Shown: positions 2,852 through 18,237 of the stretch, one piece after another
Numbering within the stretch: position 1 is the stretch's first letter
Layout of the letters: every line of letters starts with the position of its first letter
NCBI GenBank assembly: GCA_965200905.1
Contig: CBDAVN010000015.1
Location: forward strand, 112,332-136,331
Direction of reading: 5' to 3'
DNA: 24,000 nt
From: Psychrosphaera sp.
GTDB lineage: Bacteria; Pseudomonadota; Gammaproteobacteria; Enterobacterales; Alteromonadaceae
Position numbers and translations under genes: made by a program
Notes under the pieces: model-generated
Databases searched by the model: none
What the model saw: only the letters and a program-made list of their open reading frames with translations
Told to the model about the DNA's origin: nothing

Positions 2852-5800
2852 TTAAAGTAGCTCTAAGTATTTATCTAATTGTTGTTCTGAAAGTTGATTT
2901 AATCTCTCACTAAGTTCTATCTGTTGCGCAACTTCTGTTGCAGAGCTAAGAGCGATTAACGCACCTAACTCTGCTAATTCATCAATATAGGCAGCGATTC
3001 TATGTAATGTTTTCAACTCAAATATTTCAGCAATACTGATCTCAACGGAAAACATTTGTTCAACCTTGGAACAGAGTCGAATGGCTAAAATGGAGTGTCC
3101 CCCAGACTGAAAAAAGTTTGCATTACGGGAGATGGTGCCGCTTTCTTGGTTTAATAATTCAGCCCATAGGCTAGCAAGGGATAACTCAGTAGCAGACTCG
3201 CAAGGTATTATGTGCTCGGGAGCAGCTATAATATCGGGCAACTTCAGCGCTTTACGATCAACCTTTCCGTTAGCATTTACAGGAAATTCCTCCATTAACA
3301 CAAAGCTACTTGGCTGCATATGTTCTGCCAATACCGAAGCTGACAATTGCAATAGGTAATGTGCCGAAAGTGTAGAGTAAGTAGCTGTGACGTAAGCAAT
3401 TATACGAGTCTCAGCTTCATTACGTTGATCTGCAACTACAACTGCAGATTCGATCTCAGGTAAGCTTTGCAACACTTTTTCAATCTCGCCTAGCTCAACT
3501 CTAAACCCCCTGATGTTAACCTGATCATCTGTACGACCGAGAAAGATCAGCTGGTCATTTTGATCAAGTCTAACTCGGTCGCCAGTTCGGTAAATACGGT
3601 TTTGGCCATCACAGCTCCAAGCTAAAGTTGTGAATGCTTTATCAGTGGTATCTTTAAGTCCTAGGTAACCATCTGCGAGTCGAGTTCCTGAAATACAAAG
3701 CTCACCAGACTCCCCAGGAGGAACTAGGTTTAGCTCTTCATTGAGAATATACTGAAAACTATCACCAACGGGGTTACCCAAGGCAACCGATCCTTCGCTA
3801 TTATATATCTCTGCGCTTTCTGCACTATCTAAGCAAGCTAAATGGCTAGTAATACATGCCTCTGTAGGACCATATGCATTAAACAACTTGCACTGTTCAA
3901 AACGATTATAACGCCGCCAAATAGCAATAATTTCAGGTGGAAAAATCTCACCACCTAGTATTACTCGAGATAAGTGGCTTTGCTGCCAAAACTCCTGGTC
4001 TGCAGCTAATCTAGGCAGTACTTCTCTAGCATAGCTGCCAGGTAGGTCAATTGAGGTTACCTCAGTTTGTAATAGCCAGTTTCTGAACTTTTCAGCGCTT
4101 AACAAGTCTGGAGCACGAACCACCAAAGTAGCACCACTGCACAAAGCCGTAAAAATCTGTTCGTAAGCTGTATCAGAGCCAATACTAGCAAACTGTAAGA
4201 TTCGATCTTTACTATTATATTGATATTCAACTACGGCATTATAAATGTGATGAGATAGCGCTTTGTGTCCCATTACAACGCCTTTAGGGCTGCCTGTTGA
4301 ACCAGATGTGTATATCACGTAGGCTGGGTTAACCGATTCGATAAAAGCCGACTTAGACTTGCATTCAAGCGGACTTTGCTTGCAGTCCATTAGAGTTAGA
4401 GTAGAGCAGTCCAGCTGCGTCAATTGGCTATCCCCCTCATTGCTATGCAAAATGAGCGATAGCCCAGCATCTTGCTGAATTGCCTGCAACCTACTCAAAG
4501 GTAGTTTGGGGTCCATAGGCACAAAGCCAAAGCCAGCTTTCAAAACAGCGAGTATAGCTGTTACAAACTCAACACCTTGGGACAAACAAACCCCGATCAG
4601 AGGGGGATTTATAGCGTGAGTATGTATGCAGCTAGCAAGTTCGGTGGCACGTTGATTAAGCTGTTGATAAGAAATCTGTTGTTGTCCGTCCAGAATTGCA
4701 ATTTTTTCTCCAAACCTCTCCGCCTGTGCACTAAACAACTGCTCAATGTTTTGCGAATCACTATTATTACTTAACTGATTGGAAGGCTTTAATAGCTTCA
4801 ATTTTTCGTCTGGTGTGACTAGCTCTATTGCTGCAACAGGAGTTTCTAGTGAAGCATTGCTGACTTGATGAAATATATGAAGTAACCTTTCCGCTAAAGC
4901 TTCACCCTGCTCTGGTGTATAATAATCAAGTCTGAAGTCAACGTTAATCCAATGAGGCTGTTGCTCTCCCCAGTCACAAAGTGAAATCTCCAAAGGATTA
5001 GTTTGGCTGTTACCCTTAAGGTAAGCTATATGTGCAGACTCATCAGTAAATCTAAGTTTAGTATCGTAGCTAATATAGTTAGCATCTACCTGTACGAAAT
5101 TATCAACATCACGGCCATATTTTCTAACCAAACGTTGAATATGGCTTACAGGCATATTAGCGTGGCGCATATACTCGCGAATAGTACGCTTAACACACTG
5201 AAAAAGCTCTCCTATTGTATTGACTTCATTAAAGTCAAAGCAACAAGGCACTACCCCTGAAAACATTCCCATCATATGTCGATATGCCTTAGGCCGACGA
5301 TGCATAGGTATTCCCATCATAAATCTAGGTTGACTCTTTACTTTCCAATAATACAGAGCTACTACAGCAGTATGCACCACGCCTAGACTGACCTTGTTCT
5401 GCCGTGCAAATGACTCTAACGATTGCTGTAATTTGGGAGCAAACGTTTTGGTCACTCGCAAACTATCAAACTCATTGCTCTCTTTGTTGATTTGTTTATG
5501 AATGAGTGGATTTGGCAGCGATGCGAGCTGTGTTTGCCAGAACTCCTGATCTTGCTGATACTGCTCCGAGTCAATATAAGCATTATCCTGTTCATGATAG
5601 CTTTGAAACTTGAGCGGCTCTGGCACAGCCGAAATATCTTCACCATTGAACAGCGCTCTATAATAAGCTTCGACCTGCTTCAGTAAATACAAAATACCAA
5701 AGCCATCCGTCAGAATATGATGAACCTTAGTAACCCAAACATGACGCTCATCAGGTAACCTAATTAAACTAAACTTTATTAATCTATCAGTACCTAAGTT

Positions 5801-6133
5801 AAATGGTTTATTACGACATTCTTTAATCCAGCTATCCAACTTTTGATTGCAATCGTCGGCTGATGAAAAATCAATAACTTCAAATGGAGTATCATTGAAT
5901 TTATCGTAATGCTGAATGCCACTATCACCAAAGACATCAATACCTGACCTGAGCACATCAATGTTATTCACAGCGAAAGTTAAAGCTTGTTCAAACAACT
6001 CAAGTTTAAGGTCACCACGAATATCAGCCATTAGCACTAAGTTATAGAGCGGGCTATCTGGTAAAGTTAACTGCTCAAAATAAATAGGAACCTGAGCTGA
6101 GGTTAGAGGTTGTCGCACATCACGCATTTCCAC
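2852..6133 (-). CDS. Non-ribosomal peptide synthetase, one C-A-T module (1093 aa), first gene of the minus-strand NRPS operon
   Basis: ORF track protein. C domain has HHILTDGFG. A-domain cores are YVIYTSGSTGSPKGV (A3), NAYGPTEA (A5), GELCISGTRLADGY (A6), YRTGDRV (A7), GRTDDQVNIRGFRVELGEIE (A8) and NGKVDRKAL (A10). Carrier domain has FFQSGGHSILAIRL. A helical C-terminal tail of about 55 aa (..LSEQQLDKYLELL) looks like a docking helix, matched by the helical N-terminus of the downstream NRPS. Confidence 0.95.
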   Translation of the reverse strand: MEMRDVRQPLTSAQVPIYFEQLTLPDSPLYNLVLMADIRGDLKLELFEQALTFAVNNIDVLRSGIDVFGDSGIQHYDKFNDTPFEVIDFSSADDCNQKLDSWIKECRNKPFNLGTDRLIKFSLIRLPDERHVWVTKVHHILTDGFGILYLLKQVEAYYRALFNGEDISAVPEPLKFQSYHEQDNAYIDSEQYQQDQEFWQTQLASLPNPLIHKQINKESNEFDSLRVTKTFAPKLQQSLESFARQNKVSLGVVHTAVVALYYWKVKSQPRFMMGIPMHRRPKAYRHMMGMFSGVVPCCFDFNEVNTIGELFQCVKRTIREYMRHANMPVSHIQRLVRKYGRDVDNFVQVDANYISYDTKLRFTDESAHIAYLKGNSQTNPLEISLCDWGEQQPHWINVDFRLDYYTPEQGEALAERLLHIFHQVSNASLETPVAAIELVTPDEKLKLLKPSNQLSNNSDSQNIEQLFSAQAERFGEKIAILDGQQQISYQQLNQRATELASCIHTHAINPPLIGVCLSQGVEFVTAILAVLKAGFGFVPMDPKLPLSRLQAIQQDAGLSLILHSNEGDSQLTQLDCSTLTLMDCKQSPLECKSKSAFIESVNPAYVIYTSGSTGSPKGVVMGHKALSHHIYNAVVEYQYNSKDRILQFASIGSDTAYEQIFTALCSGATLVVRAPDLLSAEKFRNWLLQTEVTSIDLPGSYAREVLPRLAADQEFWQQSHLSRVILGGEIFPPEIIAIWRRYNRFEQCKLFNAYGPTEACITSHLACLDSAESAEIYNSEGSVALGNPVGDSFQYILNEELNLVPPGESGELCISGTRLADGYLGLKDTTDKAFTTLAWSCDGQNRIYRTGDRVRLDQNDQLIFLGRTDDQVNIRGFRVELGEIEKVLQSLPEIESAVVVADQRNEAETRIIAYVTATYSTLSAHYLLQLSASVLAEHMQPSSFVLMEEFPVNANGKVDRKALKLPDIIAAPEHIIPCESATELSLASLWAELLNQESGTISRNANFFQSGGHSILAIRLCSKVEQMFSVEISIAEIFELKTLHRIAAYIDELAELGALIALSSATEVAQQIELSERLNQLSEQQLDKYLELL

Positions 6134-6273
6134 ACTCCTGTAAGAAAATTGGCTTGAATCACTGCTTAACCAAATACTAGAAATTAAGTCTCAAAACTAG
6201 CTAGCAGCGATTACAACTGATGCCTAGTTTGCAAAATTGACTTCGCACTTTACTCCTGCAGTCAATTTTAGAA

Positions 6274-6293
6274 ACCTGCAAGATCTAGCAGTA
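6274..6293. promoter_or_regulatory. lux-box-like 20-bp dyad (ACCTGCAAGATCTAGCAGTA) in the divergent NRPS / aminotransferase-operon promoter region
   Basis: CTGC-N8-GCAG dyad; 14 of 20 positions are self-complementary. It has the ACCTG...CAG architecture of the V. fischeri lux box (ACCTGTAGGATCGTACAGGT). It lies between start codons at 6133 (-) and 6388 (+). A -10-like TAGACT at 6314-6319 would put the dyad centre near -42.5 for the plus operon. TAAAGT (minus strand, 6247-6252) would do about the same for the NRPS operon. Confidence 0.55.
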
Positions 6294-6387
6294 TCGTATT
6301 TCACGGTTATCACTAGACTAAATCTCGATAATTTTTGGAGCACTCCTCCGAAGTTGAGTCCATTACTTTCTAAGACGGGGTCTAGCG

Positions 6388-7692
6388 ATGAACAGGGATA
6401 CACAAAAAAGCAATAACGAAACTGAATTTCACAATATAGAATCAGAGGTCAGGTATTACAGTCGTCAGTACCCAGTCGTATTTGATGGCGCCAAAGATCA
6501 CTTGCTAATAACAGACTCAGGTGAGCAATATATCGACTTCTTATCAGGAGCAGGCTCACTCAATTATGGCCACAATCCCGATAGCATCATGAAAGAAGTA
6601 ATTAGCTATTTACAAAAGTCGAAAGTACTCAATTCACTCGATCTAGATACTAGTGCCAAGCGAGCTTTTATTACTGCTTTGAACGATATTATTCTCAAAC
6701 CTCGAGCCTTAGATTACAAAATTCAGTTTACTGGCCCAACTGGAACTAATGCTATAGAAGCTGCGCTTAAGCTCGCTCGAAAAGTAACTCAACGACAAAA
6801 CATTATCGCCTTTACTAATGGTTTTCATGGCATGACTCTCGGAGCATTAGCTGCTACAGGTAGTAGTGGTAAAAGGCAGGGGGCAGGAATTGGTTTATAT
6901 GGTATTACTCATATGCCATTTGATGGATATTACGGTGAGACAATCAACACCATTGAACTTATAGAACGTCATTTACAGGATACAAGTAGTGGGTTAGAAC
7001 TCCCAGCAGCTTTTCTGGTTGAAACAGTACAAGGCGAAGGAGGCCTTAACACAGCCAGTGACGATTGGTTAAAAGCCCTGTCTCAACTAGCTAAACGCTA
7101 TAACATATTACTTATTATTGATGACATACAGGCTGGCTGTGGTCGTACAGGCAAATTCTTTAGCTTTGAAGGGGCTGGGATCAACCCAGACATCGTCTGT
7201 TTGTCAAAGTCTATCAGTGGCTGTGGGCTGCCAATGGCTATCACCTTATTAAAACCTGAACTTGATATCTGGCAGCCCGGGGAACATAACGGCACATTCC
7301 GTGGCAACAACTTAGCATTTGTTGCGGCTCGAGCAGCGCTTGAATTTTGGAACAACAACATGTTTGAAGCGCAAATTGGTAAAAAATCAGCCCTTGTGCA
7401 TGAACAATTATCAGCAGCAATAGTTGAGCTACCATCCTCTCAAGCTAAAGTTGTAGGAAAAGGGCTATTAAAAGGGGTAGAGTTTCAAGACCCCACTATA
7501 GCCACCCAAGTCATGCATCTAGCGTTTGAACAGGGACTTATCTTAGAAACTTGTGGCTCCTGTGACCAAGTTATTAAATTGATGCCTCCGATCAACATAA
7601 CAGAAAGTGCACTTAATCAAGGCCTTACCATCGCTAGAAATGCTATCACTAAAGCAATAACTCCTCTTATTGAACAAGCAGCAAGTAGTTAA
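6388..7692 (+). CDS. Diaminobutyrate--2-oxoglutarate aminotransferase family (EctB/PvdH/Dat-like class III PLP aminotransferase)
   Basis: 434 aa. The N-terminal IESEVRYYSRQYPVVF signature is typical of DABA aminotransferases. Class III aminotransferase motifs are present: GSLNYGHNP, DDIQAGCGRTG and CLSKSISG (Schiff-base Lys). Confidence 0.85.
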   Translation: MNRDTQKSNNETEFHNIESEVRYYSRQYPVVFDGAKDHLLITDSGEQYIDFLSGAGSLNYGHNPDSIMKEVISYLQKSKVLNSLDLDTSAKRAFITALNDIILKPRALDYKIQFTGPTGTNAIEAALKLARKVTQRQNIIAFTNGFHGMTLGALAATGSSGKRQGAGIGLYGITHMPFDGYYGETINTIELIERHLQDTSSGLELPAAFLVETVQGEGGLNTASDDWLKALSQLAKRYNILLIIDDIQAGCGRTGKFFSFEGAGINPDIVCLSKSISGCGLPMAITLLKPELDIWQPGEHNGTFRGNNLAFVAARAALEFWNNNMFEAQIGKKSALVHEQLSAAIVELPSSQAKVVGKGLLKGVEFQDPTIATQVMHLAFEQGLILETCGSCDQVIKLMPPINITESALNQGLTIARNAITKAITPLIEQAASS

Positions 7693-7713
7693 TAAGCAGC
7701 ATCGGAGAACAAG

Positions 7714-10002
7714 GTGATATTTGAACAAATTGCCAAAACGATTTTACGCCATAGGTTAAAGTCTATTTTACTGACTTTAGCTATCATTGCGGTGCTGTTT
7801 CAGAGCATCGCAAAATTGTCCTTTACTAACGATTATGCAGCCCAATTTGGTGAGAAAAATCCACAATACCTAGCCTATGAAACGCTACTTGCTCAATATG
7901 AAAATACCGATAATATTCTGATCGCAATTAGGCCCTATGATAAAAATGTATTCAGCCAGCAAAGCTTAGAGATAATAACTCGATTAACAAAACTGGCCTG
8001 GAAAACACCTTATTCAAGGAGAGTTGATTCAATTAGTAACTTTGTCTACACCTACGGCGAAGAGGATGATGTCATTTCTGAACCTCTATTTGAACATTAT
8101 CAACAACTAACTGAGCAACAAATCAAAGCAAGGGCTGATTACGCAACTTCAGAGCCAACATTAAAAAATGTTTTGGTGTCTGAAGATGGTAAAACTGCCG
8201 CTGTTAATATCACTGTAGTGCTACCTAAAGCGAACTTTGTCGATGAAGTCTATCAAGCTAACGAATACATAATTTCTACGTTAAAAACCTTACAGCAAGA
8301 GCAACAAAACTTCGACTATTACTTAGCAGGTAAAATTGTCCAAGACAGGGCATTTTTTGATGCTACTGGAGACGAATCAGCAACTCTGTTTCCGATCATG
8401 TTTATCGTAATTTTGCTAGCCATTTTTGCCATTTTGAGAAGCTTAACGGTGACGATTGCTATACTCGCAGTAGTAGTTGGCTCGGTCTTAGCAACGCTCG
8501 GAACCTTGGGTTGGATGAATTTGCAGTTAACACCTGAGGCTCTGACTGCACTAATAATGATAGCCCCTCTGGCAATAGCCGATTGTTTACATATTTACTT
8601 CATCTTTTGTAAAAAGCGAAGAGAAGGTCTTTGCACAGAGCAAGCTTGCATATTTAGCATGCAAAGCAACATAAAACCAATAGTGTTAACAAGTGTCACT
8701 ACCTCCATAGGTTTCCTCAGTATGTTACTAGTAGAGGCTCCTCCCTTTCAACATATGGGCTTAATTGTGGCTATAGGAGTCGGCTATGCACTACTGCTAT
8801 CCTTTATATTATTTGCGCCATTACTGATACTCATTAAACCTTGGCAGACACAGGCACTGTTGATCCCGAAAGTCATTAGTTTATCGGCAAAGATATTTAG
8901 CCACCACTCAAACAGAACAATAGCAGTGCTTTCGTTTCTTATCTTGGTATCACTCATAGGTTTTTGGCAAAACAAAATCGACCAAAATACATCCGAATAT
9001 TTCTCTTCGAAAATGCAATACCGTCAGGATGTAGAATGGATAAATAATAACCTTACGGGTATCAACAACATTCAGTTTTCGATCCATGCTAAACAAGCTC
9101 ATGCCATTACAGACCCTGACTATTTGCAACACCTAGAAGCGTTCAGTAACTGGTTAAGGGCACAGAATGGGGTTGTTTATGTTTCCAGTTTTGCTGACAT
9201 TATGAAACGTCTGAATATGGCTATGCATCAAAATCAGCAACAGTATTACAATTTGCCAACTCAACAAGAACTCTCATCCCAATACTTTACTCTCTATGAA
9301 ATGTCGCTGCCCTTTGGGCTTGGGTTAACCAATAGAGTCGACTTTCAAAAATCGGCAACTTTGGTCACCGTAAATCTGAAAATGTCTTCTAATCAGGAAA
9401 TAGTGCAGTTGGATAAGAGAGCCCAACAATGGATGCAGCAGAACATGCCAGAGTATATGTTTGCTAAAGGAACAGGGCCAGATATCATGTACTCCTATCA
9501 ATTGACCGAGAATATCCCCAGCCTAGTTAAAGGGTTAGCCATATCAATACTGCTGATTGCCGCTATCCTTTGTTACTCTTTGGGCTCTATCAAATTAGGA
9601 CTGATCAGCCTAATACCTAATTTTTTGCCTATTCTGATGGCTTTCGGCTTGTGGGGGTATGTAGATGGAGAAATTGGTTTATCGATTGCAATCGTAATGG
9701 GAATGACACTAGGGATTGTAGTCGATGACACAGTCCACCTAATTAGTAAGTATCGTATCGCTAGGCAACAGCTTAATTATAATCAGTTACAGGCCAGTAA
9801 TTACGCTGTAGAAATGATTGGCCCAGCTGTACTTGCGACAACGTTCATCATAGCTGCAGGCTTCTTAGTACTAACATTTTCACTTTTTACTCCTAGTGTC
9901 GAACTAGGTTTACTTACCGCTCTTATTATCGTTATCGCAGTAATTTTCGATCTGCTAATACTACCAACTATCATTGCAAAAATGGATAATCAACATGCTT
10001 AA
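7714..10002 (+). CDS. RND-superfamily inner-membrane exporter of the MMPL/HpnN (COG1033) type
   Basis: 762 aa with a GTG start at 7714 and GGAG at 7704-7707. Architecture is two blocks of about 6 TM helices, each preceded by a large soluble loop. Its pairing with a LolA-like gene immediately downstream is the usual context for this family. Confidence 0.75.
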   Translation: MIFEQIAKTILRHRLKSILLTLAIIAVLFQSIAKLSFTNDYAAQFGEKNPQYLAYETLLAQYENTDNILIAIRPYDKNVFSQQSLEIITRLTKLAWKTPYSRRVDSISNFVYTYGEEDDVISEPLFEHYQQLTEQQIKARADYATSEPTLKNVLVSEDGKTAAVNITVVLPKANFVDEVYQANEYIISTLKTLQQEQQNFDYYLAGKIVQDRAFFDATGDESATLFPIMFIVILLAIFAILRSLTVTIAILAVVVGSVLATLGTLGWMNLQLTPEALTALIMIAPLAIADCLHIYFIFCKKRREGLCTEQACIFSMQSNIKPIVLTSVTTSIGFLSMLLVEAPPFQHMGLIVAIGVGYALLLSFILFAPLLILIKPWQTQALLIPKVISLSAKIFSHHSNRTIAVLSFLILVSLIGFWQNKIDQNTSEYFSSKMQYRQDVEWINNNLTGINNIQFSIHAKQAHAITDPDYLQHLEAFSNWLRAQNGVVYVSSFADIMKRLNMAMHQNQQQYYNLPTQQELSSQYFTLYEMSLPFGLGLTNRVDFQKSATLVTVNLKMSSNQEIVQLDKRAQQWMQQNMPEYMFAKGTGPDIMYSYQLTENIPSLVKGLAISILLIAAILCYSLGSIKLGLISLIPNFLPILMAFGLWGYVDGEIGLSIAIVMGMTLGIVVDDTVHLISKYRIARQQLNYNQLQASNYAVEMIGPAVLATTFIIAAGFLVLTFSLFTPSVELGLLTALIIVIAVIFDLLILPTIIAKMDNQHA

Positions 10003-10786
10003 GTTTACTTTATCGATCTTATCAATTTTACTTATTTTGCCCGCCTCAATTTATGCTAGTGAACAAGGAGATCCAGTTAGAGGTCTGGAAATAGCTAAAG
10101 CCAGATATAAGAAATTTAATGGTTACTCAGACTACCAAGTTTCGCAAACAATGACCTTATTCAACGCAAACGGTGAAAGCACAGTATTTAAAATGCGGAG
10201 TAAGTCTTTAGCTGTAGATGATGACGGAGATAAAAGTTTATCACTGTTCGACTACCCAAGAGATAAAAAAGGTATTGTAATACTTACCCATACTCGCAGA
10301 TTTGGTGACGATGACAGTATGTTATATCTGCCAGCGTTGAAACGAGTAAAACGGATAGTCGCCAGTAATAAATCAGGACCTTATATGGGTAGTGATTTTG
10401 CCTATGAAGATTTAGGCTCAAAGGAAATAGAAAAGGCTGATTACTTTTATCTAGGGGAAGAACAAATCGACGGACACCCCACCTATAAGATGAAGCGCAT
10501 ACCAAAGTCCCCAAATAGTGGCTACAGCAAAATGTTAGTTTGGACAGATACTGAAAATTTGCGGATATTGCGGGCCGATTACTATGATCGCAAAGGTGCA
10601 TTACTGAAAACGCTAACTTACAGTGACTTTAACCTCCACGAAGAGCGCTTTTGGAGAGCGCACAAGTCAGTGATGGCTAACCACCAAACCAATACTAAAA
10701 CAGAAATTATTATTGATGATATTCAGTTTAACAATGGTTTTTATGCTCAGGAATTCGAGCGAAATGCGCTGAAGCGAGCTCGCTAA
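9995..10786 (+). CDS. Periplasmic LolA-like 'outer membrane lipoprotein-sorting' family protein
   Basis: The ORF track starts at TTG 9974. I prefer ATG 9995, which overlaps the upstream stop (ATGCTTAA) and yields a clean signal peptide MLKFTLSILSILLILPASIYA/SE. It carries the family signature MLYLPALKRVKRIVASNKSGPYMGSDFAYEDL. Confidence 0.75.
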   Translation: MLKFTLSILSILLILPASIYASEQGDPVRGLEIAKARYKKFNGYSDYQVSQTMTLFNANGESTVFKMRSKSLAVDDDGDKSLSLFDYPRDKKGIVILTHTRRFGDDDSMLYLPALKRVKRIVASNKSGPYMGSDFAYEDLGSKEIEKADYFYLGEEQIDGHPTYKMKRIPKSPNSGYSKMLVWTDTENLRILRADYYDRKGALLKTLTYSDFNLHEERFWRAHKSVMANHQTNTKTEIIIDDIQFNNGFYAQEFERNALKRAR

Positions 10787-10797
10787 AGGAAAGTCTT

Positions 10798-12159
10798 ATG
10801 GATAATTCGGCTATTTCGTCAAATAGAACGGACGAACTTTGTGACAATAGTTTATTGAAAAACCGTAACTTTATACTGCACTTTTTCGGTTCAACAATAT
10901 CAGGTTTTGGTGACGCTTTTACGCTTGTAGCGCTTCCGTGGCTTGTACTTGAAGTAACTAACAGTCCAATACATTTAGGTCTCATTATGGCTGCAGCAGG
11001 GGTACCAAGAGCAATAGTGATGCTATTAGGTGGGGCTTTAATTGACAAGGTAGGAGCAGCGGCAACTTTGCTATGGTCACGTGTGATGTTTTTTATTTTG
11101 TTGTCTGTGCTTGCCTCGCTAATTTGGCAGCAAAATCTTGAACTCTGGATGTTGTACGCTTTTTCCTTTGCTTCAGGGGTATTAGGAGCCTTTGCTCTGC
11201 CAGCTGCAGAATCACTGTTGCCTTTACTAGTAAAGCAACTGCAACTACCAAAGGCTAATGGACTGATACTTGGTGGGGAGCAGTTCGGCTACTTGATAGC
11301 ACCTGCTATATCTGGAGGAATGATCTGGTGGGTATCTAATAGTAACCAAGCAACAGGACACGAGTTAGATGGTCTGGCTCTTATCTTTGCTATAGATGCA
11401 CTAACCTTTCTATTCGCCGTTATTTCACTGCTAGCAGTGAAACTAAAGAGACAAAAAAAAGCAACTATCAACTATAGTTTTTGGAAAATGACTATAGATG
11501 GCTTCAGGCATATTAAACAGGATCAATCATTACTGGCATTCACTATATTTTTAATGTTGTTTGGATTTCTCGGCAATGGGCCATTTTTTGGTTTAATGCC
11601 ACTCTTTGCAAAGCAAAATTTTACAGATGGTTCAGCAACATTAGGAGTACTAATGTCAATTAATGGGGCTGGTGCTATTACGGGCATCTTAATTGGGAGC
11701 TTGTTGCGACCCAAGCCTAGCCAATTAGGTCCATTTCTTATGTCAGGATACTTGTTAACAGGTTTAGGTTTTGCCAGCCTTTCAGCTACTGACGGGATGT
11801 TATCGGCTTCAATTACTATATATCTCACAGGTATGGGTTGTAGTTGGTCAATGGTAGCAGGTATTAGTTGGATACAGGTAAGAGTACCAGAGACACTCTT
11901 AGGCCGAGCCATTAGTATCATAATGTTTGCTTTTCTAGGTTTAGTACCTTTATCCATAAGTTTAAATGGATTTATGGCCAACTATTTTAATGTCCAAAAC
12001 GTGATGCTGGTTTACGGTACTTTGTTAGCATTGGTCTCGGTTTTGGCACTCACTCTATCGAGTATTCGCTCTATGGGAGTAACTTCTGGCTCATCAAAAC
12101 AAACATTTCAAGGATCCGGACAACAGGAATTGCTATCAAACGAACAAGGAGTCTTATGA
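10798..12159 (+). CDS. MFS transporter (EntS/DHA3-like efflux pump)
   Basis: 453 aa with AAGGAAA upstream. About 12 predicted TM segments. The N-terminal NRNFILHFFGSTISGFGDAFTLVALPWLVLEVTNSP is typical of the enterobactin-exporter-like MFS subfamily. Confidence 0.8.
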   Translation: MDNSAISSNRTDELCDNSLLKNRNFILHFFGSTISGFGDAFTLVALPWLVLEVTNSPIHLGLIMAAAGVPRAIVMLLGGALIDKVGAAATLLWSRVMFFILLSVLASLIWQQNLELWMLYAFSFASGVLGAFALPAAESLLPLLVKQLQLPKANGLILGGEQFGYLIAPAISGGMIWWVSNSNQATGHELDGLALIFAIDALTFLFAVISLLAVKLKRQKKATINYSFWKMTIDGFRHIKQDQSLLAFTIFLMLFGFLGNGPFFGLMPLFAKQNFTDGSATLGVLMSINGAGAITGILIGSLLRPKPSQLGPFLMSGYLLTGLGFASLSATDGMLSASITIYLTGMGCSWSMVAGISWIQVRVPETLLGRAISIIMFAFLGLVPLSISLNGFMANYFNVQNVMLVYGTLLALVSVLALTLSSIRSMGVTSGSSKQTFQGSGQQELLSNEQGVL

Positions 12160-13040
12160 TGGAGTACGTAATAGATAAAAAACAGCAGATCACTGAGGTT
12201 GAATTTCGCAACCACTATCTAGATAAAAAGCCACTACTGCTAAAAGGTTTCACTACTGAGTCTAGGTGTATACAAAAGTGGTCGCTAGATTATTTTAGCC
12301 AGCACTTTGCTGGCCTGCAAATAGCAACCAAAGAATTTATGCCAGAGCAAATTAAAGTACACCACACTACTATGGGAGAATATATAACGTCACTTCGTAA
12401 CTACTTTGCAAAAATGGAGCAAGGTAAAGCATGCTCTCTCCCACCTTATTGTCATGATATACCTATTTTTAATATAGCCCCAGCACTCATAAAAGATGTT
12501 GAAGGTTTTCCAAGCAATTGGTTACCCAAATGGTACCAAACGAATTGGTGGCTTTTTTGCCAGTTTTTTATGTCTGTCGAAGGCAGCGTTACCCCATTAC
12601 ACTTCGATACTTTACGCACTCATAATCTATTTTTTCAGGTGCAAGGACGCAAACGCTTTACTCTCATCCCGTGGGAAAAGAGTAAAGCGTGTGATCGCAG
12701 AGGGTGGCGTTGGTTTAACGCAGATCCAGAAGCTTCGGAACATAATAACCCTCACAATTTTGATAGTGTTCCACGAGTTATCGTTGACGTTGAACCTGGC
12801 GACATACTCTATATGCCAGCCGGAACACTTCACCATGTCAGAAGTCTCGATTTCTGTATCTCGTTCAATATAGATTTTCACACCCGAGCAAGTTTGCTCC
12901 AAACTGTCCCCGCTATAGCAAATGGTATGCCGCTGGAAAATATTTACTACAACTTACTAAGTGCACTAGGGGTCGTATGTGGTTTGCCTCAAAAGTTGCT
13001 GTTTCCACTTTATAGAAAATATCTAAATTACATCTCTTAA
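12156..13040 (+). CDS. JmjC/cupin-8 type Fe(II)/2-oxoglutarate-dependent oxygenase
   Basis: 294 aa. The start ATG overlaps the MFS stop (ATGA), with AAGGAG upstream. An HxD...H facial triad is visible (TPLHFDTLRTHN ... PAGTLHHVRS), and FFQVQGRKRFTLIP is typical of the JmjC double-stranded beta-helix. Confidence 0.7.
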   Translation: MMEYVIDKKQQITEVEFRNHYLDKKPLLLKGFTTESRCIQKWSLDYFSQHFAGLQIATKEFMPEQIKVHHTTMGEYITSLRNYFAKMEQGKACSLPPYCHDIPIFNIAPALIKDVEGFPSNWLPKWYQTNWWLFCQFFMSVEGSVTPLHFDTLRTHNLFFQVQGRKRFTLIPWEKSKACDRRGWRWFNADPEASEHNNPHNFDSVPRVIVDVEPGDILYMPAGTLHHVRSLDFCISFNIDFHTRASLLQTVPAIANGMPLENIYYNLLSALGVVCGLPQKLLFPLYRKYLNYIS

Positions 13041-13061
13041 AAAATATGTGCGATTCGACCA

Positions 13062-14315
13062 ATGTTGTCCTGTCGCACTATGAAATTAAACTTTAACCAT
13101 GCATTTAATATTATGAAAAATATTCCCCCCTTTAACTTTATTATACTAATCAACTTGATCTTTATTCCTTTAATAAGTAAAGCAAGTACAAATGACTTTT
13201 CAGGTTCAATAGAAGCGCAAAGTTTTATTTTTACTGAATCTCCCCGTTTGGCTGCTCAACCAAGTACTCAATTATCCACTATTGCCGAGCTAGAGTGGTA
13301 CCAAGATTGGAACTCGGGTAGCAGCAGCCTTACATTTAAACCTTATCTAAGGGTTGATAATCGAGATAGCGAACGTAACTTGCTTGATATAAGAGAGCTA
13401 GCTTGGAGATATACACAAAAAAACTGGGAGCTTGGTTTTGGTATATATAAGGTATTTTGGGGGCAAACAGAATCACAACATAGAGTCGATATTATTAACC
13501 AGACAGACACCCTCGCGAGTGTAGATGGTGAAGAAAAGCTCGGGCAACCCATGGTACAACTGTCTTTTTACCGAGATTGGGGCGCACTAGAGTTTTATTG
13601 GCTACCTATATTTAGACCACAACAATTTGCCTCAGAAAAAAGTCGATTTATTCCCGAACTTAGCATCACAAAAGAAAACTCCTACCAATCAGCAAGGAAA
13701 GATAAAGCAATGGATTGGGCTATTCGATGGAGCCAGATGTTAGGAGATCTTGAGCTAGGTCTATCTCACTTCTACGGCACTACAAGGTCTCCTCAGCTAA
13801 ATAAGATTAATCAAGATAACGAAGTGCTATATCAGCCTTACTATAATCGCATTGAACAAAGTGGATTAGATCTGCTCTACTTATGGAATGAGTGGGTTTG
13901 GAAATTAGAGGCAATTCACAGAAGTTTTAAAGGTGGTGCATTTACGGCGGTAACAACAGGGTTCGAATATACTCAAATAGACTTGTTCCAGTCAGCCGTA
14001 GATCTAGGCTGGGTAGTCGAATATTCGACTAACTCCAACCCCAACTTATCAGGCGACATTGCTCAGAATGATATTTTTATTGGTAACCGACTTACATTTA
14101 ATGATGCGGCCGATAGTGAACTGCTGTTCGGCATTAACCAAGATCTAGGTGACTCTTCTTCATACTCAGTAATATTAGAGGGCAGTACCCGCTTAAGTGG
14201 TAGCCTTAGAGCAACATTAAACCTTTATCTATTCAATGCCAGTGACCCTCTAGACCCAATGCATTACTTGGATAAGGATGACTTTATGCAATTAAATCTA
14301 GAGTACTTTTTCTGA
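13062..14315 (+). CDS. Secreted protein, probable outer-membrane beta-barrel (family not recognised)
   Basis: 417 aa. In-frame ATGs at 13080 and 13113 are alternative starts; 13113 gives a canonical signal peptide MKNIPPFNFIILINLIFIPLISKA/ST. It has alternating amphipathic strands and a C-terminal aromatic end ...LNLEYFF, typical of BAM substrates. Confidence 0.6.
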   Translation: MLSCRTMKLNFNHAFNIMKNIPPFNFIILINLIFIPLISKASTNDFSGSIEAQSFIFTESPRLAAQPSTQLSTIAELEWYQDWNSGSSSLTFKPYLRVDNRDSERNLLDIRELAWRYTQKNWELGFGIYKVFWGQTESQHRVDIINQTDTLASVDGEEKLGQPMVQLSFYRDWGALEFYWLPIFRPQQFASEKSRFIPELSITKENSYQSARKDKAMDWAIRWSQMLGDLELGLSHFYGTTRSPQLNKINQDNEVLYQPYYNRIEQSGLDLLYLWNEWVWKLEAIHRSFKGGAFTAVTTGFEYTQIDLFQSAVDLGWVVEYSTNSNPNLSGDIAQNDIFIGNRLTFNDAADSELLFGINQDLGDSSSYSVILEGSTRLSGSLRATLNLYLFNASDPLDPMHYLDKDDFMQLNLEYFF

Positions 14316-15065
14316 ACACACTCTGCTGCTTGTTAGTAGTTGTGAAACTATATATTCTTGGTCATCGTCAATAAAAAAGTGATCACCATTAAAAGTTTTA
14401 ATAGAAGTTTGACCTGTCGTTAATTCGAACCATTCACGCATTTCTTTATCAGATATACAGTCCTCATTACCAAGCCATGCATCAATAGGACAGTTCAGTA
14501 ATTCACAGTGGCTAAACTGGTACTGTTCATTTAGTCGAAAATCAGCACGTATTATAGGCATAAAAAATGCCATCAACTCGTCACTTTCATATATTCTCGC
14601 AGGAGTGCCATTTAACTTTTTCAGCTCAGCTAAAAAAAGATTATCAGGCAGCGACGAAATCGCTGTAGAAGTCAATGGTAAATTAGGCGGCCGTTTAGCT
14701 GACACTATCAACTTTCTGGGACTCTGTAGCCTAGCTCCCTGAATTCTCATAGCTAGCTCATAGCTAATTAACGCTCCTAAGCTATGGCCAAAAAAAACAT
14801 AAGGAATATCCAGCACACTTTGAATATCTTTATACAGAGCTTCAATAAGTTGTGACATTTCTGAACATAAAGGTTCAACAAAACGTCGCTCTCTGCCAGG
14901 GTAACATATAGCAGTTAGCTCAATATCTTTAGGTAGAAAATTAGACCAATTTCTAAATACTGCTGGACTACCTCCTGCATATGGAAAACAGAATATTCTT
15001 AGCTTCGCATCAGGATTCGGATTAAAAGTATCTAACCAGATTGAACTACCGTAATACTTTGACAT
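14298..15065 (-). CDS. Type II (editing) thioesterase of NRPS/PKS clusters
   Basis: 255 aa. It has FCFPYAGGS near the N-terminus, the GHSLGA nucleophile elbow and a C-terminal GDHFF (His of the triad). Its 3' end overlaps the convergent 13062-14315 gene by 18 bp. Confidence 0.9.
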   Translation of the reverse strand: MSKYYGSSIWLDTFNPNPDAKLRIFCFPYAGGSPAVFRNWSNFLPKDIELTAICYPGRERRFVEPLCSEMSQLIEALYKDIQSVLDIPYVFFGHSLGALISYELAMRIQGARLQSPRKLIVSAKRPPNLPLTSTAISSLPDNLFLAELKKLNGTPARIYESDELMAFFMPIIRADFRLNEQYQFSHCELLNCPIDAWLGNEDCISDKEMREWFELTTGQTSIKTFNGDHFFIDDDQEYIVSQLLTSSRVCSEKVL

Positions 15066-15117: not shown

Positions 15118-15145
15118 GTACACCCGTCACATTAGACAGGTGTAC
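15118..15145. promoter_or_regulatory. 28-bp inverted repeat (GTACACCCGTC-N6-GACAGGTGTAC) containing a lux-box-like core (minus strand ACCTGTCTAATGTGACGGGT, 15122-15141) upstream of the thioesterase gene
   Basis: The 11-bp arms have one mismatch. The core matches the lux-box ends ACCTGT/ACrGGT. It sits 57 bp upstream of the thioesterase ATG (15065) and 18 nt downstream of the luxR-family stop. It could therefore also fold as a hairpin without a U-tract at the end of the luxR transcript. Confidence 0.45.
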
Positions 15146-15163: not shown

Positions 15164-15904
15164 TTATAAAGAAGGCTTAACTAAGCCTTGCATAATTGCT
15201 TTAGCAACAGCATGTTGCCGGTTAGATGCGTTAAGCTTATTCATAACACTACTCAAATGAAACACAGCTGTACGTTCTGAAATATTCAAAATGGTAGATA
15301 TTTCCCAGGCTGTCTTCCCCTCACAAGCCCAAAAAATACACTCTTTTTCTCGAGATGACAGTTTAACTTCTTGTTTAGCAAAAGACTCTATATTTATACG
15401 TAGGTAGTTGTTGAGTAGTCTCGTTGCAAAGCTTTGTGCACTAGCCAAGCGATTTGTAAAACCATCTGCAAACACATTACTGTCTGACACAACTAAACTC
15501 AAAGTAGCAATCTCACCACTAGGTGCCTTCATTGGTATTGAGATACCATTTACTAACCCATATTGTTTGGCTTTTTCCATTACTTTGAGATGTTCAGCAC
15601 TACTGTAACCTTCCGACTGAATCAGTTGATCCCATCGAATAGGTACCGTATTTTCGAAGCAATAGTTCACCACGGGGTCATTTTTCTGTAGGTTTTCTGA
15701 AAAGTAGATATCAGTCCAATCCTTTGGATAGTTACTTAATACACCAAGTTTTGGTGATGTTAGCGTTTCAGTATCACAAACACCAAAAAGAAAAAAATCA
15801 GCCCCCAATAGTTTGCATAGTTTTTCACAAATATCCTTGAGCTGTTTTTTATCTACAGCGGTATCAAGATCATCAATTAGCCGCACAAATTCAATATTAT
15901 TCAT
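15164..15904 (-). CDS. luxR: LuxR-family AHL-responsive transcriptional regulator (autoinducer-binding domain + C-terminal HTH)
   Basis: 246 aa with GAGGGAA upstream. Conserved AHL-pocket residues are visible (KDWTDIYF, NDPVV, IRW, GLVNGISIP). The C-terminal LuxR-type HTH reads LSSREKECIFWACEGKTAWEISTILNISERTAVFHLSSVMNKLNASNRQHAV. Confidence 0.9.
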   Translation of the reverse strand: MNNIEFVRLIDDLDTAVDKKQLKDICEKLCKLLGADFFLFGVCDTETLTSPKLGVLSNYPKDWTDIYFSENLQKNDPVVNYCFENTVPIRWDQLIQSEGYSSAEHLKVMEKAKQYGLVNGISIPMKAPSGEIATLSLVVSDSNVFADGFTNRLASAQSFATRLLNNYLRINIESFAKQEVKLSSREKECIFWACEGKTAWEISTILNISERTAVFHLSSVMNKLNASNRQHAVAKAIMQGLVKPSL

Positions 15905-16373
15905 GGTTCCCTCAGACGTTTATTCTTATTGTCATTTCCTTTGCCACATTAAACTTCTCAGACAAACTATTAGCCTTGTATGCTATGTTGAATAAGTTAC
16001 AGTCAAGATAAGATCAAAACAATACTTTTTGTTAACCAAATGAAAATAAAGTTAATTATGGACCACCAAAAATTAAAATATTGCCATTAGAGCTATTTCC
16101 ATTCCCTAGCAAATTTAACGTGAAATAGTATTTCAATATAAATTTATTCCAAAATATTGACTTCCGCCTTAACCAACTATAAATAAAGGGATAGGGCTGT
16201 TCAAACACTTAACATTAGCAATACTCCATCGTGCGAGTTCCAATGTTCTCTTTTTTATGGTTGATTCCTACAACCATCAAAACTTAATTTCTGGGCGAAC
16301 TATTATACTTCTGGGTTGATTTGTATCCATTGAAAAAAACAAGCGATAAAAGATACTGATAACATAAATAAAC

Positions 16374-16388
16374 AAGCCATGACGGCTT
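16374..16388 (-). terminator. Weak hairpin (AAGCC-N5-GGCTT) followed on the minus strand by a T-rich tract; possible terminator of the 307-aa gene
   Basis: Seen by eye about 100 nt downstream of the stop at 16488. The stem is only 5 bp (plus 3 bp after a bulge), and the T-tract is interrupted (TTATTTATGTT). Confidence 0.25.
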
Positions 16389-16487
16389 TGTATTTAGCAT
16401 AGCTAGAAGGTAGACAGCTAATCTTTTTAGCTTTGACAAGCTCCGATACCGTAACAAGTTGCAGCACTAATCCTCATTAGTAAATGA

Positions 16488-17378
16488 TTAAGGCTTTGAT
16501 TGTAGGTGTACTATTAACCCTTGGGTTACCGTTTTTTGATAATTTAAATGCCAGTTTCCCACACGGTCAACAAAAGCAGAAAGCTCGCTGATAACTGCCA
16601 AATCATTTGATTTAGGTAACGCCAATACAATAGCTTCATCAATCAGTTTGTTTTTGATACAAGTAAATAGAAAGTCAATGTCGGTAAATAATGAAACTAC
16701 AGCCTTCTGCTTAGAACCTGTATATTTTTGTAACTTCTGTAAACTGGAAATTGAAGCAATTTCATTGCGTTCAATGACATCATTCATAATATTAAAGCAG
16801 GGAGAGAAATATAAAATATCAGCTTGATTAAAAGTATAAAATATAGCAGAAGACTCAGCTAACGGCTTTAGGGCACTCTCAATGAAACCAAAACTGCTCT
16901 GCATAAGAGAAATTGTGTTGGCATCGAAATTTCCCTGCCAAACCGATATACCAATAGTCCAAGGTCTCCCTCTGAGCTTCAGTGATAGTGCACCAGATAC
17001 CAACCCTTTAGCATGAGGCCTTGACTGTGGAAAAAAGCTGATCTGCCCAGAGTAACTTGAGCTCCAATCGCGAAATATTGGGTCACGGAGATAGTCTGGC
17101 AATTTGTGTGCAATATGAAGTTGTTCACAATTTGATCGAGTAATCATATCCAGCAGCATTTTTGTATTGCAGTTTTCGATAATTGGTTCGCAAGAACAGT
17201 AAAGATAGGCAATTTTCTCACTGTGTTGATTTATCAAATAACTGCTGCGATGTTTTTCGAATCCCGTCATACCAAATTGACTGCCAAGTATGTGGCCATT
17301 TTGATCAACTGCAGTAAATGCAAAGCCAGCACGTAAAGAAATAGAGCAGGCAAGTGACAAAGTATAATCGGATAACAT
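16488..17378 (-). CDS. Hypothetical protein between the luxR- and luxI-family genes (no recognisable motif)
   Basis: The ORF track gives 307 aa from a TTG at 17411. The first ATG is at 17378 (MLSDYTL..., 296 aa). It is a long uninterrupted ORF in an otherwise AT-rich region and has no signal peptide or TM segments. I could assign no family. Confidence 0.6.
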   Translation of the reverse strand: MLSDYTLSLACSISLRAGFAFTAVDQNGHILGSQFGMTGFEKHRSSYLINQHSEKIAYLYCSCEPIIENCNTKMLLDMITRSNCEQLHIAHKLPDYLRDPIFRDWSSSYSGQISFFPQSRPHAKGLVSGALSLKLRGRPWTIGISVWQGNFDANTISLMQSSFGFIESALKPLAESSAIFYTFNQADILYFSPCFNIMNDVIERNEIASISSLQKLQKYTGSKQKAVVSLFTDIDFLFTCIKNKLIDEAIVLALPKSNDLAVISELSAFVDRVGNWHLNYQKTVTQGLIVHLQSKP

Positions 17379-17497
17379 TTTTGACAATGGTTGCGACAAC
17401 GGAGGAAACAATTTACTACAAGCCTAAGCCCGTTTGCGCAAACACAGGCAATAACTAAAATGGCCAGCAAAACTATCAAATCAAGACAACAGAAGAA

Positions 17498-17517
17498 ACC
17501 TGTAACTTCTTACAGTT
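17498..17517. promoter_or_regulatory. lux-box-like dyad ACCTGTAACTTCTTACAGTT (CTGTAA-N4-TTACAG)
   Basis: It has 6-bp perfect arms, and 14 of 20 positions are self-complementary. It lies in the 247-bp divergent region between the 307-aa gene and the luxI-family gene. Its position suits a minus-strand promoter: GATAGT -10-like at 17472-17477 puts the box centre at about -42. Confidence 0.55.
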
Positions 17518-17576: not shown

Positions 17577-17596
17577 TACCGCAAGATCTGACAGGT
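17577..17596. promoter_or_regulatory. Second, less symmetric lux-box-like site TACCGCAAGATCTGACAGGT upstream of the luxI-family gene
   Basis: The right half ACAGGT is a perfect lux-box half-site. It shares the 9-mer GCAAGATCT with the box at 6274-6293. The centre is about 72 bp upstream of the luxI ATG, and a -10-like TAGTCT at 17619-17624 would put it near -44. The left half-site is poor. Confidence 0.4.
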
Positions 17597-17658: not shown

Positions 17659-18237
17659 ATGAATAAAGTATATTTTGCGACGTCAAACCAACAAAACCAC
17701 GATTTAATTGAACAGATATATAGCTTACGGCATCAGACGTTTATAAAGAGGCTTGGTTGGGATATTACATCTGATAAGGGATTGGAGCAGGATAAATTTG
17801 ACTTTCTTGATCCTGTTCATATCGCAGTTACCGATACAAAAGACATAGTAAAAGGATGCTGGCGTGCCCTGCCTACGACTGGAGACTACATGTTGAAATC
17901 AGTCTTCCCACAATTATTACAAGGTGAAGATGCTCCCCAACAGGAGGATATTTGGGAGATAAGCAGACTCGCAGTACAAAAGTACTCTTCAAAGCCAGAA
18001 CATGGTTACATTAGTAACATATCTCTCGACCTAGTTCGTTCCTTTTATGACTTTGCTCAACTACATAACATTAGTTCATTTGTAACTGTCACTACAGTCG
18101 CTTGCGAACGAATGCTGAGACAATTAAACGTTACTTTGCGCAGAATGGGACAAGGCAAAGCACTGTGGATAGGCAAAGAATTATCAGTGGCTATTAAGAT
18201 CGAGGTAAATGAATCGTTAAAGATTTACAGAAACTGA
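17659..18237 (+). CDS. luxI: Acyl-homoserine-lactone synthase (LuxI family)
   Basis: 192 aa. It carries LuxI-family conserved blocks: LRHQTFIKRLGWDI, EQDKFD, CWRALPT and WEISRLAV. Confidence 0.9.
   Translation: MNKVYFATSNQQNHDLIEQIYSLRHQTFIKRLGWDITSDKGLEQDKFDFLDPVHIAVTDTKDIVKGCWRALPTTGDYMLKSVFPQLLQGEDAPQQEDIWEISRLAVQKYSSKPEHGYISNISLDLVRSFYDFAQLHNISSFVTVTTVACERMLRQLNVTLRRMGQGKALWIGKELSVAIKIEVNESLKIYRN

Follow-up and report, generated by a model that had tools for sequence, protein, structure and literature searches.

A lux-type box between divergent NRPS and transaminase/export operons and its probable use by both promoters

Two large operons of a biosynthetic gene cluster diverge from a single intergenic gap, and within that gap lies a dyad resembling the operators of quorum-sensing receptors. 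The locus therefore raises the question of whether one such operator serves both operons. LuxR-type activators bind 20-bp dyads centred at about −42.5, and several NRPS and PKS products are under AHL control in other bacteria. We addressed the question by sequence analysis of a 24-kb window (the whole stretch of DNA analysed, C15:112332–136331), which was set against the entire 4.75-Mb assembly from which it comes and against an orthologous cluster.

The features of the window are collected in Table 1. The two NRPS genes are followed, in the other direction, by an operon of six plus-strand genes (6388–14315), in which the genes overlap or are separated by gaps of at most 21 nt. The cluster is probably silent; it probably makes an N-acylated peptide that contains diaminobutyrate and has a dedicated export route across the envelope. 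The start of the NRPS operon is most likely the ATG at 6127, which is preceded by a Shine–Dalgarno sequence (AGGAG, 6139–6135) at a spacing of 7 nt and is also the start in the orthologous cluster; the GTG at 6133, which the list of open reading frames gives as the start of the NRPS gene, is unlikely. With the ATG as the start, the divergent gap comprises 260 bp (6128–6387). A preliminary description of this DNA had recognized the divergent layout, which stands, and had placed the left edge of the gap at 6134, which is now moved to 6128. No terminators were found in the divergent gap, and no known RNA families were found in the 24-kb window.

Table 1. Features of the 24-kb window, with the positions of orfX homologues in related loci.
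Feature	Position	Strand	Remarks
Second NRPS gene (C-A...)	1–2799	−	Pfam; runs off the window; orthologue in L093 has 3716 aa
First NRPS gene (C-A-T, 1091 aa)	2852–6127	−	Pfam; ORF list extends to 6133
Second conserved dyad	6227–6275		Arms 6227–6242 and 6260–6275; 17-nt spacer
Putative −10 TAAAGT, NRPS operon	6247–6252	−	Predicted start near 6240
Lux-type box, proposed LuxR operator (NRPS box)	6274–6293		ACCTGCAAGATCTAGCAGTA
Putative −10 TAGACT, transaminase/export operon	6314–6319	+	Predicted start near 6326
EctB-type diaminobutyrate transaminase	6388–7692	+	616.6 bits; equivalog cut-off 552.2
MMPL/HAE3 pump, LolA-like protein, MFS, cupin/JmjC, unknown 417-aa protein	7714–14315	+	In this order
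Type II thioesterase	14298–15065	−	Pfam
Fourth lux-type box, luxR–thioesterase gap (98 bp)	15122–15141		ACCCGTCACATTAGACAGGT; 13.9 bits
LuxR-type AHL receptor	15164–15904	−	Autoind_bind and GerE
orfX, between luxR and luxI	16488–17411	−	Unannotated; predicted RibD-like two-domain fold
Distal lux-type box, gap upstream of luxI	17498–17517		ACCTGTAACTTCTTACAGTT; rank 4 on literature matrices
Proximal lux-type box upstream of luxI	17577–17596		TACCGCAAGATCTGACAGGT; genome rank 2–3
LuxI-type AHL synthase	17659–18237	+	
orfX homologue, L087	10718–11689		
orfX homologue, L089	10754–11725		
orfX homologue, L094	10712–11779		
orfX homologue, L096	10721–11722		

The preliminary description had reported a CTGC-N8-GCAG dyad at 6274–6293, and both its sequence and its coordinates were exact. 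The dyad is self-complementary at 14 of its 20 positions, and its arms, CTGCAAGATCT and AGATCTAGCAG, show 91% complementarity. It has the form of a lux-type box, being an imperfect inverted repeat within the range of 18–22 bp and carrying the CTG-N10-CAG core with its flanks. No other CTGC-N8-GCAG occurs in the 24-kb window; the looser CTG-N10-CAG occurs six times against an expectation of 4.4, which is unremarkable. Identity to the Vibrio fischeri box is 13/20, a level reached by hundreds of sites, and Hamming similarity to that box was dropped as a criterion.

All 20-mers of the 4.75-Mb assembly were instead scored with a symmetrised matrix of 20 columns, based on ten lux-type boxes known from other genera, five of which were matched verbatim in published or posted texts (PMC4444344, PMC1766932, PMC7048289, PMC10732425 and a 2026 bioRxiv preprint). 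The dyad was the highest-scoring 20-mer in the genome (20.8 bits), and it kept this rank, at 20.1 bits, when the matrix was restricted to the five verified boxes. With a matrix derived from related LuxR loci it ranked 14th. By the exact score distribution, the score on the ten-box matrix corresponds to p = 4.2e-8 per position, so that 0.2 such sites are expected per genome, 0.001 per 24-kb window and 1e-5 per gap.

A consensus scan of 6000–6500 found no sigma-70 consensus promoter, and the −35 consensus was absent. This is what activator-dependent promoters that lack a −35 element would look like. On the plus strand, the putative −10 hexamer TAGACT begins 21 nt past the box, which places the centre of the box at −42.5 if the hexamer occupies −12 to −7. 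On the minus strand, TAAAGT (6252–6247) begins 22 nt past the box, corresponding to a centre at −43.5. These values agree with the earlier claim that −10-like hexamers would set the centre near −42/−43 in both directions. The hexamers are candidates that match the consensus at only four of six positions, and the predicted starts are derived from them. At random positions in the genome, −10-like hexamers are found at such offsets on one side in 4–7% of cases and on both sides in 0.2–0.5%. The box would sit halfway between the two predicted starts, which are separated by about 86 bp, and the leaders would measure about 62 nt on the transaminase side and about 114 nt on the NRPS side.

A LuxR/LuxI pair had been noted 9 kb away in the same cluster, and we located it 9–11 kb from the dyad. 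The genome encodes one LuxR with an Autoind_bind domain and one clear LuxI, both of them in this cluster. Alignments of the LuxR to QscR and LasR showed that the invariant residues of the AHL pocket (W, Y, D, P, W and G) and those of the HTH are present, and the genome thus contains a cognate receptor in which the AHL-binding and HTH domains are intact. QscR, LasR and RhlR are its nearest relatives of solved structure, and its best relatives in the databases are 50–53% identical. Exact-sequence look-ups of this LuxR and of one homologue returned no record. The gene between luxR and luxI, orfX, had no match in Pfam or NCBIfam. Its product is predicted to adopt a RibD-like fold with a deaminase and a reductase domain (pLDDT 77; Foldseek E = 1.7e-12 to RibD structures).

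The window contains more boxes of this type, including two at the synthase gene. The NRPS box and the two luxI boxes rank 1, 2 and 4 in the genome with the matrix of ten boxes, and 1, 3 and 4 with that of the five verified boxes; the distal luxI box takes first place with the matrix from related LuxR loci. The proximal luxI box and the NRPS box have GCAAGATCT in common. A fourth box, in the gap between luxR and the thioesterase gene, ranks eighth with the matrix from related LuxR loci. Its centre is 66 nt upstream of the thioesterase ATG, and a −10-like TAAAAT lies 22 nt beyond it (15100–15095). A multiple alignment of the four box regions revealed little similarity outside the boxes themselves. 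A box is thus present at each biosynthetic unit (the NRPS operon, the supply/export operon and the thioesterase gene) as well as at luxI and the divergent orfX. The earlier idea that the whole cluster may be AHL-controlled gains from these additional boxes upstream of luxI, orfX and the thioesterase gene, as far as sequence can tell.

The window contains three sites of at least 17.5 bits, where 0.014 would be expected. Across the genome, four sites of at least 17 bits were observed against 3.9 expected, which is the chance number, and the case consequently rests on where the sites are and not on an excess of them. Each of the four boxes in the window lies between genes. The sites that rank 3 and 5–15 and lie elsewhere are inside long ORFs, with one exception on contig C33. 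A large LuxR regulon was rejected, since the counts match chance at every threshold and the other top sites fall within ORFs; from its sites, the regulon looks confined to the NRPS cluster. Within the cluster, the 583-bp AT-rich region upstream of luxR (15905–16487) contained no lux-type box of at least 8 bits, and luxR is therefore probably free of box-dependent autoregulation.

The exception on C33 (184320–184339; ACCTAGCAAATACAGCAGGT; 15.5 bits) is the only other intergenic site with a high score. It lies between two plus-strand ORFs of 876 and 671 aa, and might be an outlying member of the regulon or a product of chance.

A comparison was made possible by a single orthologous cluster. Among the 5.8 billion sequences searched, the first NRPS protein had one close relative, P0135, which is of equal length and 76% identical. 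It is encoded on a 28.9-kb Logan contig (SRR22824305_187573; L093/L094), on which the complete cluster is found with its gene order unchanged. The cluster is rare: two copies were found in the databases searched, and scans of genome and metagenome collections yielded no copy. A DNA search of 40 relatives of the genome gave weak matches to the transaminase gene only and no homologous gap. A search of genome contigs with the transaminase returned generic EctB homologues of at most 56% identity, which are uninformative for the promoter, and metagenome contigs gave no match to the NRPS alignment or to the conserved core used as a DNA pattern. Between the two copies, the biosynthetic and export proteins are 72–88% identical, with 75–88% for the six genes of the plus-strand operon, which are in the same order.

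The 260-bp gap aligns to its counterpart in L093 without indels and with 77% identity (200/260). In the flanking genes, the four-fold degenerate sites are only 45–48% identical and the third codon positions 55–57%. The whole regulatory region is thus under constraint. The NRPS box corresponds to L093 9085–9104, where 17 of its 20 positions are identical and both CTG and CAG are kept (AGCTGCAAGATCTGCCAGTA, in the orientation of the plus strand of the window). The flanking hexamers read TAGAAT on the plus side and TAGAGT on the minus side of the orthologue, at unchanged offsets. Just past the plus-side hexamer, conservation drops to 11–13/20 in 6321–6350, as expected at a start site. The conservation is not specific to the box: at 17/20, it is no better conserved than the surrounding promoter core (6240–6325; 67/86). 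In this back-to-back layout, every base of the core belongs to both promoters. At the thioesterase gene, 18 of the 20 positions of the box are identical in the orthologue (L093 245–264), compared to 9/20 for the adjacent 20-nt spacer, and TTAAA is kept at the −10 position.

We considered the possibility that a dimeric regulator other than LuxR uses the dyad as its operator, or that the conservation of the dyad has a different cause, and that its likeness to a lux box is coincidental. The constraint on the entire gap, instead of on the box alone, would be in keeping with this, as would the chance rate of high scorers genome-wide and the fact that the CTG-N10-CAG core is a common one, shared with LexA boxes, which occur in this genome. 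However, no lux-type site in the 4.75 Mb scores higher than the dyad, the only LuxR is encoded 9 kb away, and 1e-5 such sites are expected in this gap; the dyad has GCAAGATCT in common with the box next to luxI, and no regulator gene other than luxR was found in the cluster. A LexA SOS box (CTGT-N8-ACAG with an AT-rich centre) could be ruled out. The dyad has CTGC and GCAG arms around the centre AAGATCTA, and the AGATCT in the middle contains GC, unlike the LexA/SOS-type sites of this genome, which have CTGT/ACAG arms and an AT-only centre (e.g., TACTGTATAAATATACAGTA). An operator of another regulator is therefore improbable.

A palindrome that arose by chance and has no function is more improbable still, to the point of being hard to credit. 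In its favour, about 0.2 sites of this score are expected per genome; the location of the dyad, the three additional boxes and the flanking −10 hexamers all speak against an accident, as does the retention of CTG and CAG in an orthologue in which neutral sites are 45–48% identical. We consider it highly likely that the dyad is a true site for LuxR, whatever its exact role.

Immediately adjoining the box on the NRPS side is a second conserved dyad (Table 1), whose arms are 88% complementary and whose spacer contains the candidate −10 TAAAGT. It is unique in the genome, and the idea that it is a repeated element was accordingly rejected. As a single strand it would fold with −17.1 kcal/mol (z = −2.95). 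The orthologue retains the dyad, and a C>T/G>A change in its arms is compensatory (AAAATTGACT...AGTCAATTTT versus AAAATTGATT...AATCAATTTT). If transcription starts near 6240, one arm only would be transcribed, which makes a second factor's operator, spanning about −34 to +14, seem more likely than an RNA hairpin. The product of orfX was considered as the factor that binds there, an assignment that is unsupported, as its predicted RibD-like fold is that of an enzyme and not of a DNA-binding protein. The second dyad may mean that the promoter on the NRPS side is laid out differently or answers to an additional regulator.

These observations bear on whether the box, although a genuine LuxR site, is an activator site for both operons. 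It could serve one promoter only, most likely that of the transaminase/export operon, or could work on the NRPS side with or against a second factor bound at 6227–6275, either by anti-repression or by repression of the type known from EsaR. The plus side has the canonical offset of 21 nt, its −10 improves to TAGAAT in the orthologue and conservation falls just past that hexamer, as at a start site. The −10 on the NRPS side, by comparison, lies in the spacer of a conserved and compensated dyad that adjoins the box. Nevertheless, the NRPS side also keeps a −10-like hexamer at offset 22, the stretch from the box to the NRPS start holds no second conserved −10 candidate, and the offset of 22 nt recurs at the thioesterase box in both clusters. 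The kinship of this LuxR to QscR, LasR and RhlR also speaks against this alternative. Use of the box by one promoter, or in concert with a second factor, is therefore unlikely, though it deserves more weight than a foreign regulator or a chance palindrome. The reading that we prefer, in which one box confers AHL-dependent activation on both operons, is probable. All sequence-level tests favoured the earlier reading that a single shared box drives both operons, and from them we infer that LuxR binds, that it activates and does not repress, that both promoters are used and where transcription starts.

In the mechanism that we propose, LuxI would synthesize an AHL, which at high cell density would load LuxR. 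A LuxR dimer on the NRPS box would stand in for the missing −35 element of both promoters and recruit RNA polymerase in both directions in class II fashion. The rightward promoter, with TAGACT as its −10 and a start near 6326, would drive the operon for diaminobutyrate supply and export; the leftward one, with TAAAGT and a start near 6240, would drive the NRPS operon. The other boxes would provide positive feedback on luxI and co-induction of the thioesterase gene and orfX. With boxes at the thioesterase gene, luxI and orfX, the cluster would form a small, self-contained quorum-sensing regulon. If this is correct, the AHL encoded in this rare NRPS cluster is also the signal that turns the cluster on, and addition of AHL, or expression of luxR and luxI, would be a direct route to the product of a probably silent cluster.

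Lux-type boxes at about −42.5 and a box shared between divergent operons are textbook cases, and the dyad is, judged from its sequence context, very probably a well-supported but ordinary case of quorum-sensing control of a secondary-metabolite cluster, confirming a known design. Like the lux box of V. fischeri and the las–rhl boxes of Pseudomonas aeruginosa, it is a 20-bp imperfect palindrome with a CTG-N10-CAG core, and in both of those systems, as here, an AHL receptor and synthase are encoded nearby and boxes precede luxI. The V. fischeri box is likewise centred about 42.5 nt upstream of the start, which for our dyad is presumed, and replaces a −35 element; it lies before the synthase gene, whereas the dyad sits between divergent biosynthetic operons.

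In the P. aeruginosa rsaL–lasI bidirectional promoter, a LasR box lies beside an RsaL operator, an arrangement that the lux-type box and adjoining second dyad described here may resemble. An RsaL homologue is absent, however; the predicted fold of the orfX product is enzyme-like and related to RibD, not DNA-binding, and the second dyad has arms of 10–16 nt and a 17-nt spacer. The central AGATCT of the NRPS box is shared with phz boxes (PMC7048289, PMC10732425).

The closest parallel for one LuxR-type operator serving two divergent operons is tra box I of Ti plasmids, from which TraR drives traAFBH and traCDG as class II promoters, each start lying about 45 nt from the box (PMC3907764). The two boxes differ in sequence, the tra box having 18 bp, and the starts at the tra box have been mapped, whereas those in the window are predicted only. 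Relaxosome proteins autorepress the traA/traC region, in which oriT is located as well; the gap in the window has the second dyad. If our reading is correct, the NRPS box would be a second clear case, after TraR at traA/traC, of one box for two divergent class II promoters. More generally, biosynthetic clusters linked to luxR are common in Proteobacteria, with NRPS clusters the commonest type (26%), and 47% of the luxR-linked clusters carry luxI (Brotherton, Medema and Greenberg 2018, PMC5872303). The cluster described here likewise has a luxR homologue embedded in an NRPS cluster, in this case together with luxI, and luxR and luxI homologues are embedded in the orthologous cluster as well. 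Compared to the clusters of that survey (PMC5872303), it combines diaminobutyrate supply, an MMPL pump, a LolA-like protein and NRPS genes, and has a gene with a predicted RibD fold between luxR and luxI in its cassette.

The regulatory genes themselves have diverged much further than the biosynthetic and export genes. In the orthologous cluster (L093/L094), the cassette products are 44% (LuxR), 28% (orfX) and 57% (LuxI) identical to those of the window, and its LuxR is the most distant from the window LuxR among six members of the clade. The cassette is also found at the opposite end of the cluster, on the far side of the NRPS genes and of a PPTase gene and away from the thioesterase gene. 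With a divergent and relocated cassette and boxes that were kept, the cis sites may have survived a replacement of the trans factor; it seems that the quorum-sensing cassette was exchanged or changed its place, whereas the biosynthetic promoters retained their boxes. The comparison of the two clusters thus amounts to a small natural experiment in which operators persist while the regulator cassette is exchanged.

Related LuxRs are found in luxR–orfX–luxI(–thioesterase) units of other biosynthetic clusters in marine gammaproteobacteria, in which orfX is conserved at 22–28% identity. In two of these loci (L087 and L089; LuxR 50–52% identical), the cassette accompanies genes of the trans-AT PKS type, and in Catenovulum sp. 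SM1970 (L096; LuxR 47% identical) stand-alone C, PCP and A genes. A more elaborate design is conceivable, in which the gap is a composite bidirectional switch, with LuxR and a second factor at 6227–6275 jointly gating the NRPS promoter, and in which LuxR, the RibD-fold gene and LuxI make up an exchangeable cassette that plugs into biosynthetic clusters; we put it forward tentatively and as doubtful rather than expected.

All of the related cassettes have boxes of the ACCTGT-N8-ACAGGT type in the orfX–luxI gap. The divergent gap between the biosynthetic genes of L087 and L089 contained no strong lux-type box. In L096, the two best-scoring sites (2678–2697 and 8793–8812) lie in two divergent gaps of the cluster, and a box between divergent biosynthetic genes thus recurs in this receptor clade. 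The L096 cluster also carries acyl-CoA dehydrogenases and an AfsA-like gene.
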